The notes beneath the pieces were generated by a model. That model had not been told where the DNA came from and searched no databases. It saw only the letters and a list, made by a program, of their open reading frames with translations. 64,000 nucleotides of DNA from an uncultured Verrucomicrobiae bacterium (GTDB lineage Bacteria; Verrucomicrobiota; Verrucomicrobiia; Palsa-1439), in assembly GCA_963812605.1 (NCBI GenBank), contig CAWEWF010000001.1, positions 576,001 through 640,000 of the forward strand. The letters run 5' to 3'. Each line of letters begins with the position of its first letter. The stretch's first letter is position 1. The position numbers and the translations under genes were made by a program. Shown piece after piece: positions 1-6,967 of the stretch.

Positions 1-17
1 ATTTTGTAAATAGACAA

Positions 18-215
18 ATGAGCAGTCCTTCAAAAAATCGTCTCTGGGAAACCCTGACCCGTCCCATTCCTCTAAAATGGACGTGGAAGGACGGGGTGGC
101 GCTCGCCATCCTGGCCTTGATCGTCCTGATCAAGAATGCCCTTTCCAAGTCGGGCACAAGCGGCCATCGCCTGCTTGCTTTTCCACCCGTGTACGTTATA
201 TTCGCACTGCCATAA
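18..215 (+). CDS. small hypothetical membrane protein
   Basis: 65-aa ORF with one hydrophobic stretch (GVALAILALIVLI); no recognised family. Confidence 0.3.
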   Translation: MSSPSKNRLWETLTRPIPLKWTWKDGVALAILALIVLIKNALSKSGTSGHRLLAFPPVYVIFALP

Positions 216-221
216 CACGGC

Positions 222-227
222 TATATT
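222..227 (+). promoter_or_regulatory. candidate -10 element for ssrA
   Basis: TATATT ending 5 nt upstream of the tmRNA 5' end; no convincing -35. Confidence 0.35.
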
Positions 228-232
228 CTCAT

Positions 233-587
233 GGGGGCGAAACGGATTCGACTTTGTGGGGTGAGCGTGAGCGGCATGCCGAGGTTGTCAGGAGGCCTCG
301 TTAAAAACCTGGCAAAAACATAACTGCGAATCACGAACTCGCACTCGCGGCTTAATTGTCCGCGACGTTCCGCCTGCGACACCTGCTGGTGGGGTCGGAA
401 CGACGATAGCAGGTTAGTCTATGGATGTCGTCTTCAGGTCCATGGATGAAACACTAACTGGAGGCTGGCGCGGCGGGTGGCCTGTCCATTGGCAGCACGC
501 CGGGCGAGACCCAAAGATGGAATAAGCATGTAGTCACTTGCGTGCGCTTTGCAGAGGACGTGGGTTCAACTCCCACCGCCTCCACCA
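233..587 (+). ncRNA. ssrA: tmRNA (transfer-messenger RNA)
   Basis: 5' GGGGGCGAAACGGATTCGAC; 3' GTGGGTTCAACTCCCACCGCCTCCACCA with T-arm and CCA; acceptor stem GGGGGCG/CGCCTCC with G3.U wobble; tag frame 326-355 encodes ANHELALAA-stop after TAACT. Confidence 0.97.
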
Positions 588-2087
588 CTTTGAACTTGGC
601 GTGAAATCATCGACCGCGCTCGGCGCGGCAACGGTGGTTTCAGCCAAGAAATTCCAGGGTTTTCTGAAGGTAACAGTTAAGGTCTGCTCGCGTAAAAGGC
701 GGTTCGAGCAGACCTTTTTAAGGAACCCTTTCATTTCTAACCAGTTTTGGTCAGTCAGCCATTCTTCGGCCTTGTTTGCCTCAAAAAGCCAGTTTTTGAG
801 GGGTTCGAGCCGATGAGCATGGTTTGACTCCAAAGTGGTGATTTGACCCTCCAATTCGACCTTGCGGGGCAGGAGGGGGTTTTTGAGTTCCTTGAACTCC
901 TCAATATCGAGTGACCCGTCGGCAAAGCCGTTGTTGATGCGGTCGATCTTGGTCTTGATCGCCGCCAACTCGGCTTTGAGTCGGTCGATCTGTATTTGCC
1001 TCCGTACCGTCTCCTCCTCTTCCCACGTTTCAACTTTGGCGAGAAACCGTTCCTTCCATTCGATGGGAAGGGCGACTAGCTGCGTGTTCCGTTTCACTTC
1101 ATCGGCGAACGTGTCTTTGCGAATGTACGAGCGGTCTTCGCAATGCACCTTCTTGTTCTTGTGGGTGCATCGGTAGTAGTCGAAGCGAAGGCCGCTCTTT
1201 TTGATATGCCGTTCGCCGGTGATACAATGGCCACAGGAACCGCAGGTAGCGAAATTCAGGAAGAGAAATCCTTTGTCGTCGCGATGCTTGCGAGGCTTCG
1301 CGACGGCAACAAGCGCTTCTTGAATCTGATCGAAGGTTTTCTTCGAAATCATGGGCTGGTGCACGCCGTGGTGCACTTCGCCCTTGTGCAGAAAAACGCC
1401 ATAGTAGAAGTGGCAGCGGAGCAGGTTGCCGACGGAAGAAAGTGGTAGTGGCTTGCCATTCTGTCGGCCTAGAATACCAAGCTTGGTTGACTCTTTCTGG
1501 ATGGCGGTGAGCGAATATTCGCCTGTGGCGAATAGCTCCAAAAGCCGCTTCACCTTGGGAAAAAGCTCTGGATGGGGTTCGATGGTGCGGAGGCGTGGTT
1601 CATTTACATAGCCAAGTGGTGCTCTGCCGGACCATACGCCGCGTCGAACCTTCTCGCGGATGCCCCTGCGGATATTTACGGAGAGATCGCGGACGTATTG
1701 GTTCGCCATGCCGAGTTCAACTGCTATCATGAGCACGTTGTCGGATGGCAGGTACGTTCTTTCAAAGGCGCGGATTTCCTGAATGACGCCTCGCTGGAGC
1801 AACCCGATGATCTTTCCCCCGTCATCGAAGTTGCGGGCGAGTCTATCGAGCTTCCATGAAAGAATGGCATTCGCCTCGCCGCGTTCGATGCGGGCTAGCA
1901 TGTCGTTGAAGATTGGTCGGCCAGGCTCCTTGGCGCTCCGACTTTCGGTAAATGTTTCGACGATCACCAAGCCGTCTTGCCGCGCGATCGAGTTCAATTC
2001 GGAAAGCTGGGCTTCGATGGAAAGAATTTGTCTGTCTTCATCCTCCGTCGATTTGCGCGCATATACGAAGTATTTCAGCATGGACAT
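534..2087 (-). CDS. large serine recombinase (integrase)
   Basis: YARKS catalytic motif, WKLDRLAR, recombinase domain (APLGY), Zn ribbon (CGSC...C...C), coiled coil; the last 54 nt overlap tmRNA antisense. Confidence 0.95.
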   Translation of the reverse strand: MSMLKYFVYARKSTEDEDRQILSIEAQLSELNSIARQDGLVIVETFTESRSAKEPGRPIFNDMLARIERGEANAILSWKLDRLARNFDDGGKIIGLLQRGVIQEIRAFERTYLPSDNVLMIAVELGMANQYVRDLSVNIRRGIREKVRRGVWSGRAPLGYVNEPRLRTIEPHPELFPKVKRLLELFATGEYSLTAIQKESTKLGILGRQNGKPLPLSSVGNLLRCHFYYGVFLHKGEVHHGVHQPMISKKTFDQIQEALVAVAKPRKHRDDKGFLFLNFATCGSCGHCITGERHIKKSGLRFDYYRCTHKNKKVHCEDRSYIRKDTFADEVKRNTQLVALPIEWKERFLAKVETWEEEETVRRQIQIDRLKAELAAIKTKIDRINNGFADGSLDIEEFKELKNPLLPRKVELEGQITTLESNHAHRLEPLKNWLFEANKAEEWLTDQNWLEMKGFLKKVCSNRLLREQTLTVTFRKPWNFLAETTVAAPSAVDDFTPSSKWWRRWELNPRPLQSARK

Positions 2088-2123
2088 AGTCTAGCAGATT
2101 TCATAAATGATTGCGATATAAAA

Positions 2124-2531
2124 ATGAAGCGTCAGAAACATTTTACAATACCGAAAGCACTGCTCAAGAAACTGCGGGGTAATTCCTCGTCGGAGCGCCT
2201 GCTGCATCGCCTGCATGCCGTCGCGCTCGTTGCTGGCGGGCTTTCGGCTAGTGAAGTCGGGCAAATCTACGGTGATTCCCCCCGTGCTGTGGCCTATTGG
2301 GTGACTCAATACAGGAAGAGCGGCTTTGAAGGACTACAGGAGGAGGATCGCCCTGGTCGTCCGGCGCAATTAAGCCCAACGCAGATGAAGAAGCTGCAAA
2401 CTTTTGTGGAACAATCTCGTGCGAGATCACGAACGGTGAATGCGAACATCCTCTCCAAGTATATCAAAGAAGAGTTCGGCATTTCTCTTAGCACCCCTCA
2501 GTGTTGGCGGATTCTTAATCGATTGAAATGA
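2124..2531 (+). CDS. HTH DNA-binding protein resembling the N-terminal region of IS630 transposases, with no DDE domain
   Basis: RLHAVAL...SASEVGQIYG...YWVTQYRKSGFEGL...RPGRPAQLS...IKEEFGISLS...WRILNRL; 135 aa; divergent from the integrase across 36 bp. Confidence 0.8.
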   Translation: MKRQKHFTIPKALLKKLRGNSSSERLLHRLHAVALVAGGLSASEVGQIYGDSPRAVAYWVTQYRKSGFEGLQEEDRPGRPAQLSPTQMKKLQTFVEQSRARSRTVNANILSKYIKEEFGISLSTPQCWRILNRLK

Positions 2532-2603
2532 GTGAGTGTTGTGGTTGTCGGGTGTTTCTTTAGGCTCGATGGTGCGTATGCGGCGCCAGCAGTGAAGCTG
2601 GTC

Positions 2604-2780
2604 CCGCCTTTTACGCGAGCAGACCTTAACTGTTACCTTCAGAAAACCCTGGAATTTCTTGGCTGAAACCACCGTTGCCGCGCCGAGCGCGGTCGATGAT
2701 TTCACGCCAAGTTCAAAGTGGTGGTGCCTTCTGGAGAAAGTTCGTACCTTTTTTAATGAAAATCCAGTCTGATTTGGGTA
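2604..2780. repeat. internal inverted copy of reconstituted attP (177 bp)
   Basis: 2604-2724 is the exact reverse complement of 582-702 (121 bp); 2719-2780 is the exact reverse complement of 3386-3447 (62 bp); the two overlap at TGGTGG. Confidence 0.95.
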
Positions 2781-3447
2781 AGGGAGCAATGGCTCCGTGA
2801 AGAGATCCGCGCGAACCGAATCATGATTCTTGAACTGATGAAATGGGGGGTAGTAGTTCTGTCCGGCGTTACGTCATCGCTATATTTTGTTCGGCGTAAC
2901 GTGGCGAAGCACTTGGCGGCACTCGGTGCACACCTTCGCCGTCGATGGGGTAAGAGGGGTATCGACGTAGCACAAGGGGGGTGTAGCCGAAGCGTATGTA
3001 ACCCGAGCCGATCCATCTGCGTAGCTGCGAAACGGGAGGGGAAAAGGTGTCGAGAGGAAACCTGGGGAGGCTTCCTCCCTGTTTTCCTGCGAACCCGTTT
3101 CCGGGTTCTTGTCTCCCGCGTAAGCGGGCTGTCCCACCCGTGTTCGACCCGTTAAAGGACATTGTCCTTTAACACGTTCCCGTGCGTGGGTGAACCCGTT
3201 GTGTCGCCTCTGCGACGAGCGCGAGCACGGCCTGCCCTGAGGCCGCGCGCAGCCCGATTCCGCGTGAGCGGAAAACCTATGGAAGTAGGGGATGTCAAAC
3301 GAGGGGTGAACCACGACAAAACCGTTGTAAACATTGACTCATCTGGGATCAGCACCCCTCCCCACAGTGGGGAAGGGTGTGGGGATACCCAAATCAGACT
3401 GGATTTTCATTAAAAAAGGTACGAACTTTCTCCAGAAGGCACCACCA

Positions 3448-3493
3448 TTCGACGCGCCCTTCGCTCAAGCGAAGGGCTTGCTCATGGCAGGCC
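3448..3493 (+). repeat. REP-like palindrome / hairpin downstream of the right junction
   Basis: TTCGAC...GCCCTTCGC-TCAA-GCGAAGGGC...GCTCATGGC; 9-bp perfect stem at 3456-3477. Confidence 0.6.
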
Positions 3494-3545
3494 ATTCCAC
3501 TAAATTCGACACAGACTCTTTGCACGCCAGCGCGGCGAATGGGCG

Positions 3546-3833
3546 ATGAACTCCTACACCTATATTCTTCTCTGTGCCGATGATTCTCTGTATGTTGGGC
3601 ACACGCACGATTTGAGTTTGCGGGTCGATGCACACGACACAGGTCGCGGCGCTCTTCACACCGCCAAACATGGAGTTGCTCGACTGGTCTACTCAGAAGA
3701 ACATGCCACCGAAGCGCTAGCCGTGGCACGCGAACTTCAGATCAAGAAATGGAGTCGTGCGAAGAAGATGGCGCTCATCAATGGGGATTTTGAGCGACTA
3801 CGCGAACTCAGCCGGAGCCGAGACAAATTCTAA
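3546..3833 (+). CDS. GIY-YIG nuclease family protein (UPF0213-like)
   Basis: YTYILLCADDSLYVGHT...R...H...ARELQIKKWSRAKKMALI. Confidence 0.9.
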   Translation: MNSYTYILLCADDSLYVGHTHDLSLRVDAHDTGRGALHTAKHGVARLVYSEEHATEALAVARELQIKKWSRAKKMALINGDFERLRELSRSRDKF

Positions 3834-3876
3834 AGCGTTGCGAAAGGCTGCTCAAAGGCGGTGGAACATCCTGCGG

Positions 3877-4683
3877 ATGACCGTCATGTTCGAGGGAAAG
3901 ACCCGGCGGCGTAATCGGCTTCAGGCACAAACCTTCCCCGCATTGTGGGGGGCCATCCTGCAGCAAAACGTCTCGTACTATCAGCGGCTCACCCCGTCCG
4001 AGCGCAAGGAATTGCACGGTGACATTCAGGTGTTCATCGCGGAGAAAAACTTCGAAGGGTGCGGCGGCCTGGAAATTACCGAGGAGATCAAAGTCACTAT
4101 TGCCGCTTACGCCTGCATCCTGTTGCTGAACCGCCGGCACGATTTTTATCCGCGTCTGCGATCCATCCTCGTCTATCCTGATGCCTATCCCGCGGCGGTG
4201 GTGCGAATCGCGCCGGGAAACATCGCAATCGAAGGCCACGAGATGCGCGCCGGGGAATCCTGGCGGACTGGGGCGGTGGTCCTATCGTGGAACCATGTCC
4301 TGCGTCGCCCGGCGGCGGTTCCGGAGGGCCGAAATGTGGCGCTCCATGAGTTCGCGCATCAGCTCGACCACGAGAATGGCTTTACCAACGGCGCCCCGGT
4401 CTTGCCGACAACTTCCCAATATGCCACGTGGGCCCGCGTTCTCGGGAGTGAGTTCGCTACCTTGTCCAAACAAACCGCGGCTGAACAGCCGACGCTCATC
4501 GATAAGTATGGCGCAACCGAACCGGCCGAGTTCTTCGCTGTCGTCACGGAATATTTCTTTGAAAAATCGGCCCAGCTCCAACAGCGGCATCCCGAACTTT
4601 ACGAGGAGTTAAGGCGTTTCTACCGCCAGGACCCGGTCAGCACGGATCGCATGGAATCACCAACGCGCCAGACCCCAAAATAA
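3877..4683 (+). CDS. zinc metallopeptidase, M90/MtfA family
   Basis: FIAEKNFEGCGGLEIT, ILVYP, GESW, NVALHEFAHQLD, YGATEPAEFFAV. Confidence 0.9.
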   Translation: MTVMFEGKTRRRNRLQAQTFPALWGAILQQNVSYYQRLTPSERKELHGDIQVFIAEKNFEGCGGLEITEEIKVTIAAYACILLLNRRHDFYPRLRSILVYPDAYPAAVVRIAPGNIAIEGHEMRAGESWRTGAVVLSWNHVLRRPAAVPEGRNVALHEFAHQLDHENGFTNGAPVLPTTSQYATWARVLGSEFATLSKQTAAEQPTLIDKYGATEPAEFFAVVTEYFFEKSAQLQQRHPELYEELRRFYRQDPVSTDRMESPTRQTPK

Positions 4684-4746
4684 ATGCACCCCAACGGCCA
4701 CGCAGGGCCGCCGGGGTGCATGGAACTGCTTGGCCTTTGGGAAGGC

Positions 4747-4983
4747 TTACTTCCGTTTTTGCGCGGCCTTGATCTTGGCCCAACGAGCGCGCTGTGCCGC
4801 CGCGATCCGCTCACGAGCGGCCGCCGAAAACCTCGGCTTGCGCCGGGTTATCAACTTGGAACCGGTAACTCCTCCATCCAGGGATGAAAGCGCCTTGAGC
4901 GCGAGGTTGAGCTTTTCGAGTTCGTGCTCTGCGTGTCGGCGTTGAATCTGCAACTGCTGAACAACTTGATTGATACTAGACAT
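4747..4983 (-). CDS. small basic coiled-coil protein, possibly nucleoid-associated
   Basis: N-terminal coiled coil plus FSAAARERIAAAQRARWAKIK; GGAGGA RBS. Confidence 0.7.
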   Translation of the reverse strand: MSSINQVVQQLQIQRRHAEHELEKLNLALKALSSLDGGVTGSKLITRRKPRFSAAARERIAAAQRARWAKIKAAQKRK

Positions 4984-5188
4984 GATCCTCCGGGACTGGT
5001 TATTGCTCACATGACAATTTCACTCACGCGAATAGTGTAACAACATCGTAGCGTTAGTTCAACTGTTTCGTGTGACGATCGGTCCTAAGGATCCATGAGG
5101 CGATGTTGTTTGATTTCAACCCCAATGGGTTTATAATGCCGGGAAAGAAATTGGCAAGTGTTGGCGGTCAGCAAAGGAATACCATTCG

Positions 5189-5518
5189 ATGAAGAAGCGG
5201 ATTTTATTGATGATAACAGCCGTGGCGACATTCGCGGGAATTGGCTGCGAGGAGCCGCGTCCACGGCCTGTGCCACCTCCTCCCCAGTATCGCACCCAGC
5301 CGATGGGCCTGGCGGACATCAAGATGCTCGCGAAATCGGGTGTCAGCGACGAAGTCATCCTTAGCCAGATTCGCAACTCGCGTACCGTCTACCACCTCAG
5401 CGCAGCGGAGATCTTGGACCTGAAGGACGCCGGTGTGAGCGAGAAAGTGATCGACTTTATGATCAACACGGCGAGCCAGTATCGTCCCCCGGGCCCTCCT
5501 CCTCCGCCGTCTTATTGA
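5189..5518 (+). CDS. hypothetical lipoprotein
   Basis: signal peptide ending GIGC; repeated DIKMLAKSGVSDEVI / EILDLKDAGVSEKVI motif. Confidence 0.75.
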   Translation: MKKRILLMITAVATFAGIGCEEPRPRPVPPPPQYRTQPMGLADIKMLAKSGVSDEVILSQIRNSRTVYHLSAAEILDLKDAGVSEKVIDFMINTASQYRPPGPPPPPSY

Positions 5519-5611
5519 GGAACGACCGGTTGCCATTTGTTCGACGTGTTGCCTCGGTGCGGTCCCGCGCGGGTTCCGGCTCGGATTGGTTGTGCCGTTG
5601 AGACGATAGGG

Positions 5612-6967
5612 ATGCTGAAACACCGTTTCACGTTGGTTTACCGCTGGGTGAGAAATCTGCTTTCGGTGGCGGTCGCCGTGGTCTTTTTGCTGCTGCCGGG
5701 TCTGACGACCATCCGGGACCTTGCGGATCCAGGCCTGAGGCGACCGGGTATCCCGGAGAAAGCCTGGCGGATGCATCGTTATCTGACGCCGCTTATCCAG
5801 CGGTGGGCGCGGGAGCGCATCGCGTCCAAGCGCGCGGCGCACTTGAATCTCTACGATGTTCCCAGCACCGAGTGGCCGATGTTCACCTGCGTGTTTTATT
5901 TGCGGGCGACCGAAGCCTTGCAGGCGGCGTGGGAAAAGGACCATCAACTGTCCCGCGAGGCCCCGTTAACCTACTCACGGGACACGGTGGAAGCCGCGAA
6001 GGACCTGCTGCTCGATCCCAACCATCACACGTGGGTGCGCCAGCATTGGGGGGACGACTACTGGCACACCCAGAATGTGTTTTTTCGCTCGTTGGTTATT
6101 TCAGGAATCACCAGCTACGAGCAACTCGACGGGCGGGGTCAGTACCGACCGTTCTTACGGGACCAGGTGGACACGTTATCGGCGTCGCTGGATCAGTCGA
6201 AACTGGGTTTGTTGGAAGATTACCCGAATGAATGTTATCCGATTGATGTCGTCGCGGCGATTGCGTGGATCAAACGCGCGGATGAGTTGCTCGGCATCGA
6301 TCGCTCGGAATTCTATGCGCGGTCGTTGCGGGCTTTTGTGGGGGCGCAGTCGGATGGACGGGGATTGGTTCCCTACACGGTTGACTATTTGAAGGGAAGG
6401 GTGGATGAACCGTCGCGCGGGATTGGCAATTCGCACGTCCTGATGTCCGCTCCCGATCTGTGGCCCGCACAAGCGGAAACCTGGTATGATCTTTATGAAA
6501 AACATTTCTGGCAGGAACGCTGGTGGGCGGCCGGCTTTCGCGAGTATCCAAAGGATGTCACGGACTACAGTTGGTACGATGTGGATTCGGGGCCGATTGT
6601 CGATGGCTTCAGCATTTCCGGCAACGCATTCGCGGTCGCGGCATCGCGGATCAACGGACGCTTCGATCATGCCTTCACGATCAGCGCCCAGGTGCTGACC
6701 GCGTGCTGGCCTTTGCCCAACGGCCTGCAACTTGGCCCGCGCCTCATTTGTCTGTCCGCCGGCGATCACGCACCCTATCTCGGCGAATCCGCGATCATGT
6801 TCTTCCTTACGCAAAACCCAAAAGAAGGCATCCCGGTGAGGACCGGCGGACATCTGGTTGGTTCCGTGTACCTTGGTCTGTTATTCTACCTCGGATTTGG
6901 CGGACTCATGCTGTGGTTGTCCATCCGCGATATGCAAAAGTTGTGGCGAGAAAAGCATCCCCATTAG
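5612..6967 (+). CDS. membrane-anchored protein, possibly linalool dehydratase/isomerase-like
   Basis: N- and C-terminal TM segments; LLEDYPNECYPIDV, GFREYP and DVDSGP motifs; function uncertain. Confidence 0.55.
   Translation: MLKHRFTLVYRWVRNLLSVAVAVVFLLLPGLTTIRDLADPGLRRPGIPEKAWRMHRYLTPLIQRWARERIASKRAAHLNLYDVPSTEWPMFTCVFYLRATEALQAAWEKDHQLSREAPLTYSRDTVEAAKDLLLDPNHHTWVRQHWGDDYWHTQNVFFRSLVISGITSYEQLDGRGQYRPFLRDQVDTLSASLDQSKLGLLEDYPNECYPIDVVAAIAWIKRADELLGIDRSEFYARSLRAFVGAQSDGRGLVPYTVDYLKGRVDEPSRGIGNSHVLMSAPDLWPAQAETWYDLYEKHFWQERWWAAGFREYPKDVTDYSWYDVDSGPIVDGFSISGNAFAVAASRINGRFDHAFTISAQVLTACWPLPNGLQLGPRLICLSAGDHAPYLGESAIMFFLTQNPKEGIPVRTGGHLVGSVYLGLLFYLGFGGLMLWLSIRDMQKLWREKHPH

Follow-up and report, generated by a model that had tools for sequence, protein, structure and literature searches.

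In a 64,000-nt stretch of DNA from an uncultured Verrucomicrobiae bacterium (Palsa-1439; assembly GCA_963812605.1, contig CAWEWF010000001.1, positions 576,001-640,000 of the forward strand), hereafter the window, we found a mobile element inserted at the transfer-messenger RNA (tmRNA) gene whose attachment site lies inside the gene of its own integrase. Positions 534-602 are the attL junction of this element, which encodes a large serine recombinase and targets the 3' ends of transfer RNA (tRNA) and tmRNA genes. In this integrase family, attP is located within the integrase gene, 15-19 codons ahead of the native stop; the exchange within the sequence CCACCA keeps the tmRNA intact, and at every integration the native tail of the protein is replaced by one encoded antisense to the target gene. 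Two copies of the native 3' end are retained, one in attR and the other in a spare inverted attP, which is separated from attL by a module that comprises the integrase gene and a gene for a helix-turn-helix (HTH) protein. The explanation that we find best, and hold with slightly better than even confidence, is that the tail swap at attL alters the function of the integrase isoform, most likely weakening or locking it, and that the native form would be regained by excision or inversion.

The tmRNA gene matched the Rfam model RF00023 over its full length (195 bits, model positions 1-374 of 374), and ARAGORN read its tag as ANHELALAA. Its last six bases (discriminator plus CCA) constitute the core CCACCA, whose reverse complement provides two tryptophan codons of the integrase. 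Further copies of the core are found at 2719-2724 (inverted) and 3442-3447, and the comparison of the repeats gave these 6 bp as the visible shared extent of the crossover region. On the minus strand, the integrase gene ends with the WW codons (582-587), 15 tail codons (537-581) and a stop (534-536); the last 18 codons of the open reading frame (ORF), 534-587, are within the tmRNA gene, an antisense overlap of 54 nt. A preliminary description of this DNA had placed the core in the WW codons near the integrase 3' end, had read the integrated tail antisense from the tmRNA with an overlap of at least 54 nt, and had located an alternative tail at 2719-2772 (plus strand) and 3394-3447 (minus strand). 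The sequence and the repeat comparison bore this out: both alternative copies read SSKWW-CLLEKVRTFFNENPV followed by a stop, and every coordinate and sequence in that observation was correct. The further statement that both tails have 15 residues is true in the window, but the equality is a coincidence, because the integrated-state tails of 112 homologues span 1-77 residues.

The element in the window occupies 588-3447 (2.86 kb). A 96%-identical integrase is present at the tmRNA of another genome (G012) in the same arrangement, with the far junction about 24.4 kb away. The G012 sequence past the attR core CCACCA matches the element-free sequence found directly after the tmRNA in G004, which indicates that CCACCA is the crossover core and that this is a true site-specific insertion. 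Empty tmRNA sites were present in G004 and G006, and the tmRNA flanks of same-genus genomes were unrelated. In comparison with G012 and G003, the cargo and a portion of the outer repeat have been lost from the window copy; judging by these alignments, it is a cargo-deleted remnant of an element of about 24 kb with conjugation-type genes.

To follow the tail swap across homologues, we used a protein set of the 120 closest clusters (64-100% identity) and 159 loci, 79 from genomes and 80 from metagenomes, fetched among the matches listed; a metagenome scan gave at least 14 close-clade loci. The WW near the C-terminus was kept in all 120 homologues. It was followed in 112 of them by a non-native tail of 1-77 residues; 109 of these tails had the signature of an antisense T arm, and the remaining three were a single residue. 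The other eight homologues showed a native-type tail, C[LF]Lxx[VAN]RT[FVH][FL][DE][EG]N..., of the CLLxKxRTFFDENP type. Among the 159 loci, a tRNA or tmRNA gene was antisense over the integrase 3' end in 88, the module was flipped in two, 22 were cut by a contig end and 47 were unclassified; at least 10 of these 47 end in native-type tails with the RT motif. Tails containing RT were observed in relatives of only 33-42% identity (10 loci). The target genes were those of tmRNA, tRNA-Ala, Val, Ser, Leu, Gln, Arg, Glu and others, and the integrated tails simply tracked the target. Conservation of the native 'VRTFF' tail alongside a variable integrated tail, the pattern that the preliminary description had proposed to look for, was what the alignment of C-termini revealed: the former is conserved in the eight homologues and in 14 of 17 spare copies, and the latter varies with the target. 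Related loci came from records labelled Verrucomicrobia, and those labelled Patescibacteria were at 33-47% identity.

The spare copies also gave evidence about the kind of selection that acts on the native tail. The reading frame continues from the integrase body via WW into a tail of the same family in those 14 of the 17 close-clade spare copies, with the stop after 15-19 codons in 12 of the 14; the other three diverge ahead of WW. For 12 non-redundant sequences, the entropy at the three codon positions was 0.94/0.70/1.27 over 14 tail codons, against 1.13/1.22/1.05 in the upstream linker. Leucine (CTG/TTG/CTT/TTA) and arginine (CGT/CGA/CGG) codons of the tail were synonymously variable, and the acidic positions exchanged D and E at the wobble base. 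At the codon level, the native tail looks like a sequence selected as protein. The distal F-[DE]-E-N-P codons, located 30-45 bp from the core, were the only ones with clean wobble-type variation; they lie outside the usual half-site and represent the cleaner protein signal. Native tails end in ...DENP(x), that of the window in ...FFNENPV, and by eye they are unlike an ssrA tag of the ...LAA type.

On the tRNA strand, the P' arm shows the word nGTTCGAnC (GGTACGAAC in the window), with GTTCGA exact in 8 of 14 loci. The comparison of arm words, which covered left half-sites only, located GTTC at -24..-21 in 13 of 13 tRNA or tmRNA arms and a like word at -29..-26 in 14 of 14 P' arms; in the window, the P' word starts 30 nt from the core end and the true T arm, GGTTCAAC, 25 nt. 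According to PMC11722253, the DBD2 motif is offset by 5 bp between attP and attB half-sites; the P' word, being 5 bp further out, has the placement that an attP arm should show relative to attB. Most relatives have a strong GC hairpin (3353-3379 in the window) and the conserved non-coding word GGGTATCCCCACACCC past the stop of the native integrase; these are likely a terminator or a protein-binding site of the native gene form.

The window integrase has the domain order of large serine recombinases: a resolvase catalytic domain (Resolvase PF00239, 2.5e-18), a recombinase domain (Recombinase PF07508, 1e-06) and a zinc ribbon (Zn_ribbon_recom PF13408, 4.2e-06). The AlphaFold2 model of P0116, a natural homologue with the native tail, includes a coiled coil inserted in DBD2 (helices 340-388 and 403-443). 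The best solved match was SPbeta YokA (Foldseek E 4.5e-22, VIA Z 17.6; 9y66_A, 460 aligned residues), with a root-mean-square deviation of 15.7 that is high because the domain arrangements differ; the Bxb1 and phiC31 integrases also matched. Solved integrases align up to approximately residue 478-484 of the model in most rows, which makes the last two helices a family-specific extension. Compared with locus L064, the ratio of nonsynonymous to synonymous substitution rates (dN/dS) was 0.13 for the integrase gene and 0.31 for the HTH gene, both ORFs being open; by this measure, both genes are under purifying selection.

The two tail forms were predicted with AlphaFold2 from the same 120-sequence alignment, in which eight rows have the native tail. 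The natural native-tail protein P0116 (mean predicted local distance difference test, pLDDT, 88.7; predicted template-modelling score, pTM, 0.54) ends in a helix at residues 492-512, with 10-residue blocks averaging pLDDT 95-97; the tail corresponds to residues 501-516. For the integrated form of the window, the mean pLDDT was 80.5 and the pTM 0.41, and residues 491-515 were below 50. In these predictions, the native tail completes a C-terminal helix of high confidence that is located past the region aligned to solved integrases, and the window protein, which lacks this tail, is predicted to be disordered from residue 491. The comparison of predicted structures proposed in the preliminary description gave a confident helix with the native tail and disorder in the window form, but the two proteins are 67% identical and their bodies are not matched.

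The second copy of the native 3' end belongs to two pairs of inverted repeats, 582-709 versus 2597-2724 (128 nt, 98%) and 2719-2780 versus 3386-3447 (62 nt, 100%), both far beyond chance. The resulting layout, tmRNA-core-[X, integrase, HTH, inverted X]-core-[inverted Y, cargo, Y]-core-flank, is the same in G012, G016 and G003. The segment 2719-2772 had been described as the attP form of the gene; it does encode the native tail, but it is actually a family-wide spare inverted attP beside a conserved HTH gene. An inverted repeat of the integrase 3' end was detected in 28 of 34 close relatives, in 39 of 125 distant loci, and in 50 of the 88 loci with a tRNA or tmRNA antisense overlap. Within an element the two arms were 100% identical in 23 of 28 cases and at least 97% identical in all 28, and between elements the arm was 76-83% identical, indicating that the two arms evolve in concert. 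Three other interpretations of these repeats were discarded: the 605-bp segment is not a miniature inverted-repeat transposable element with a target-site duplication, since the cores are inverted and not direct; the copy at 2719-2772 is not a tandem second element, since tandem copies would be direct repeats; and a hairpin-stem attP on transferred single-stranded DNA was rejected because it would leave a hairpin-capped chromosome end.

The module was flipped in loci L130 and L174, where a tRNA-Leu gene is followed by a 3' fragment and then by the full gene reading away. The arms of L174 are only 90.6% identical, which makes an assembly mix-up unlikely in this locus. Contigs in sequencing runs X3 and X4 join position 3441 to 582; the spare attP and an excised circle would both give this same junction, which is thus non-discriminating. 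No strand-changing joint, as expected from a flipped module, was reported in the contigs of four sequencing runs; no run contained more than 21% of the sampled words, and none was of RNA. The contig starts less than 200 nt outside the spare attP in 10 of the 28 repeat-bearing close-clade loci (L069, L070, L074, L075, L078, L081 and others), and many homologues are on contigs of approximately 2.0-2.3 kb. The contigs end as expected for assembly breaks in the second, longer repeat, and therefore the elements are probably under-assembled in metagenomes.

In the explanation that we favour, the integrated isoform would be functionally altered, most likely weakened or locked, with the insertion made more stable as a result. 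Excision (attL x attR) would bring the native isoform back, and so would inversion of the integrase-HTH module across the 121-128-nt repeats, in which case the element would stay integrated. Loss or weakening with recovery is preferred because the conserved spare attP then has a role and because native-tail genes are rare among integrated copies. A bolder proposal, which we consider rather doubtful, is that the C-terminal helix acts as a cis-acting control module written into the DNA state, which would be cut off by integration to give a locked or excision-type isoform and restored by excision or inversion, constituting a directionality switch free of a recombination directionality factor (RDF). 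The preliminary description had seen the tail as a built-in substitute for an RDF; this is only one of several readings, given that inversion would offer another route to the native isoform and the HTH protein is another candidate regulator. It would imply that the native-tail integrase only integrates and that the tail-swapped form excises without a separate RDF, which we regard as unlikely. The form of the gene changes exactly with the state of the DNA, as such a factor would require, and a Pfam scan of the 2.86-kb element revealed no RDF family that is known. The tail emerges from DBD2 beside the coiled-coil region or junction where, according to PMC12286644, all known RDFs are predicted to bind; the same paper proposes that the RDF site may be blocked by extensions of the C-terminus, which would be 'an alternate solution to directionality', and F532 of the SPbeta integrase, near the C-terminus, is important for directionality according to PMC11722253. 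Nevertheless, the integrated tails are wholly target-dependent, so only the loss of the native tail could serve as a signal; the idea leaves the conserved spare inverted attP without a role, and the conserved HTH gene in the module is itself a candidate regulator or RDF. A complex prediction between the HTH protein and integrase residues 270-515 gave no support, which counts neither way.

Several observations weigh against the favoured explanation. Tails of 1 to 77 residues are tolerated in nature and the window integrase, with its dN/dS of 0.13, is under purifying selection, so an integrated isoform that still works would fit. The V/A-R-T codons of the tail coincide with the T-arm-like DNA word in the P' arm, and the conservation of 'VRT', as read from the alignments, is at least partly dictated by DNA. 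The last 28 residues of the SPbeta integrase are disordered in its maps, according to PMC11722253, which suggests that the C-terminal tails of such integrases can be dispensable for structure. The AlphaFold2 contrast is between two different proteins; the window linker holds two prolines (DDFTPSSK), and the loss of confidence in the window model may not be due to the tail alone, the native tail being present in only 8 of the 120 alignment rows. The flipped state of the module is rare, with 2 cases among 90 classifiable loci and none among the 25 of the close clade, and both of these cases are on contigs that break off within the far repeat arm. The swap could be a neutral by-product, with attP overlapping a dispensable integrase end, isoforms that behave alike and a tail conserved as P'-arm DNA; the R-T codons on the T-arm-like word where DBD2 is expected on the attP half-site, the tolerance to tails of any length, the purifying selection on the integrated integrase and the disordered SPbeta C-terminus would all agree with it. 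We consider this improbable: the distal tail codons, beyond the usual half-site, vary mainly at the wobble base with D/E exchanges, the stop position is held in 12 of 14 spare copies, RT-containing tails recur at only 33-42% identity, and the tail helix of P0116 is predicted with high confidence.

Finally, the junction could act at the RNA level, with integrase expression coupled to tmRNA transcription through an integrase mRNA that runs antisense into the 3' end of the tmRNA, or through read-through of the tmRNA that is antisense to the integrase gene. The 54-nt overlap would be in line with this idea, as would the strong hairpin in the X arm directly after the tmRNA end, which might take over termination or processing of the tmRNA transcript from the native flank hairpin. 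However, the same layout is present at many tRNA genes and is not specific to tmRNA, and we judge such coupling very improbable. The X-arm region 595-647, read as a tmRNA trailer, forms a long hairpin (dG -36.3, z -5.2). Its central 6-bp stem showed compensatory changes across 23 elements (84.8% of cells paired versus 16-60% for slid pairing), and this hairpin may substitute for the terminator or processing hairpin that is native to the target gene. The features of the element and its surroundings are collected in Table 1.

Table 1. Features at the attL junction, in the integrase-HTH module and at the far end of the element (positions in the window)
Feature	Position	Strand	Evidence or remarks
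tmRNA gene, intact including the encoded CCA; left arm (B) of attL	233..587	+	ARAGORN; Rfam RF00023
tmRNA-antisense tail RRWELNPRPLQSARK plus stop codon	534..581	-	Sequence reading; antisense to acceptor and T arms
Large serine recombinase (integrase) ORF, integrated form, 517 aa	534..2087	-	Pfam domains; SPbeta YokA match; dN/dS
T-arm word GGTTCAAC of tmRNA, starting 25 nt from core end	563..570	+	Sequence reading
attL core CCACCA, equal to the WW codons of the minus-strand integrase	582..587	.	Common to both inverted-repeat pairs
X arm: final 122 nt of the integrase body, forming the P half of attP and one of the two arms of the 128-nt inverted repeat	588..709	.	
GC hairpin, conserved, within the X arm and 27 nt downstream of where the tmRNA ends	614..628	.	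Covariation count; fold
HTH protein (HTH_32/28/23), divergent from integrase, within the inverted-repeat-bounded module	2124..2531	+	Pfam; homologues in 26 loci
Spare inverted complete attP: X-arm copy 2597-2718, core 2719-2724, P' arm 2725-2780 encoding CLLEKVRTFFNENPV, stop 2770-2772	2597..2780	+	
Cargo-side remnant, 605 bp; 2931-3385 homologous to the attR-proximal end of larger relatives	2781..3385	.	No convincing ORF, no Rfam match
GC-rich hairpin directly after the native integrase stop	3353..3379	-	Fold dG -37.6, z -4.2
attR: P' arm 3386-3441, core 3442-3447; WW-CLLEKVRTFFNENPV on the minus strand, stop 3394-3396	3386..3447	-	
T-arm-like word GGTACGAAC in attR, starting 30 nt from core end	3418-3426		
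Flank B' beyond attR	3448..3477	+	Terminator-like hairpin 3456-3477, z -2.9

The start codons of the divergent integrase and HTH genes are 36 nt apart (2088-2123), and the sole promoter-like site facing the integrase is inside the HTH coding region (2167-2140). The HTH protein may control integrase expression. Regarding the cargo, 6 of the 16 ORFs scanned in G012 matched a Pfam family, including a type-IV coupling-protein domain (two ORFs), Replic_Relax, a DnaG-type primase, a DNA methylase and a CsgG-like family; by its gene content, the element is integrative conjugative or mobilisable rather than a phage. A collection of viral contigs contained only a 24%-identical recombinase and a plasmid collection only a 25.8%-identical one, with no excised copy in either.

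Within the cargo-side remnant, a segment of approximately 80 nt (2992-3071) is 80% identical to an unrelated place on a different contig of this genome (G000:C3:73651-73729, L006), and similar short matches to it were observed in relatives; a terminator-like hairpin is located just after it (3063-3081). The tmRNA was the sole Rfam match in positions 1-6000 of the window, and the L006 copy of the block gave no Rfam match. This block could be a small RNA or a transfer-related site. Beyond the element, a block of approximately 400 bp (3448-3845) with an ORF for a small GIY-YIG nuclease (3546-3833) exactly fills the space between the attR core and the sequence that in G004 and G012 directly flanks the tmRNA. 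A GIY-YIG homologue was also found just outside the attR of a tRNA-Ala element in G003 (L066:4435-4662), with a 27-nt copy of the tRNA 3' end about 400 nt further on, and a GIY-YIG fragment is present downstream of the tmRNA in G021 (L023). The GIY-YIG block could be native to this neighbourhood, or a small mobile cassette acting at the same sites.

Among the tools for the insertion of large DNA, serine integrases hold a leading place, and the control of their direction is an active question. In the natural family described here, the C-terminus of the enzyme depends on whether the element is integrated; the segment that is lost is conserved and has a predicted structure, and a direct test becomes feasible using two natural isoforms together with four short DNA sites. 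The recognition of near-universal tRNA features (the T arm and the CCA end) explains the wide target range, and it may also explain the spread of small elements in Verrucomicrobia-labelled genomes and Patescibacteria. If the C-terminal helix were indeed a cis-acting control module, it would be a self-contained switch in a very large family able to target almost any tRNA gene.

We found no account of a serine integrase gene that spans attP, or of a doubled inverted attP, in a literature search whose coverage left out most subscription journals. The SPbeta SprA/YokA, Listeria A118/LI, phiC31 and Bxb1 integrases share the domain order of the window integrase; in contrast to them, the present integrase has attP within its own gene, targets the CCA end of tmRNA and of many tRNA genes, and has two extra C-terminal helices past the aligned region, and its element carries a spare inverted attP. 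The archaeal SSV-type integrases are tyrosine recombinases with attP within the integrase gene, which is split in two by integration. In both cases the recombinase gene spans its own attachment site, but here it encodes a serine recombinase and its last 15 codons are exchanged without a split. The yeast 2-micron FLP/FRT system uses a tyrosine recombinase and identical sites in inverted repeats for copy-number amplification; similarly, the excised circle of the present element would carry two copies of the site within long inverted repeats, splitting the circle into two segments. To our knowledge, serine integrases normally do not recombine attP with attP. A short C-terminal element also influences directionality in SprA, as described in PMC11722253, but SprA works with a separate RDF, SprB, and its gene is unchanged on integration. 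A further parallel is the integration-dependent immunity of mycobacteriophage BPs, in which a tyrosine integrase acts on an attP within the repressor gene and integration removes 33 residues with an ssrA-like degradation tag (PMC4557955). In BPs, as here, attP is in a coding gene and integration changes the C-terminus of the gene product, and in BPs the behaviour of the protein is altered as a consequence; in the present family, by contrast, it is the recombinase whose gene is affected, one tail is exchanged for another instead of being removed, and the native tail does not by eye resemble the ssrA tag.

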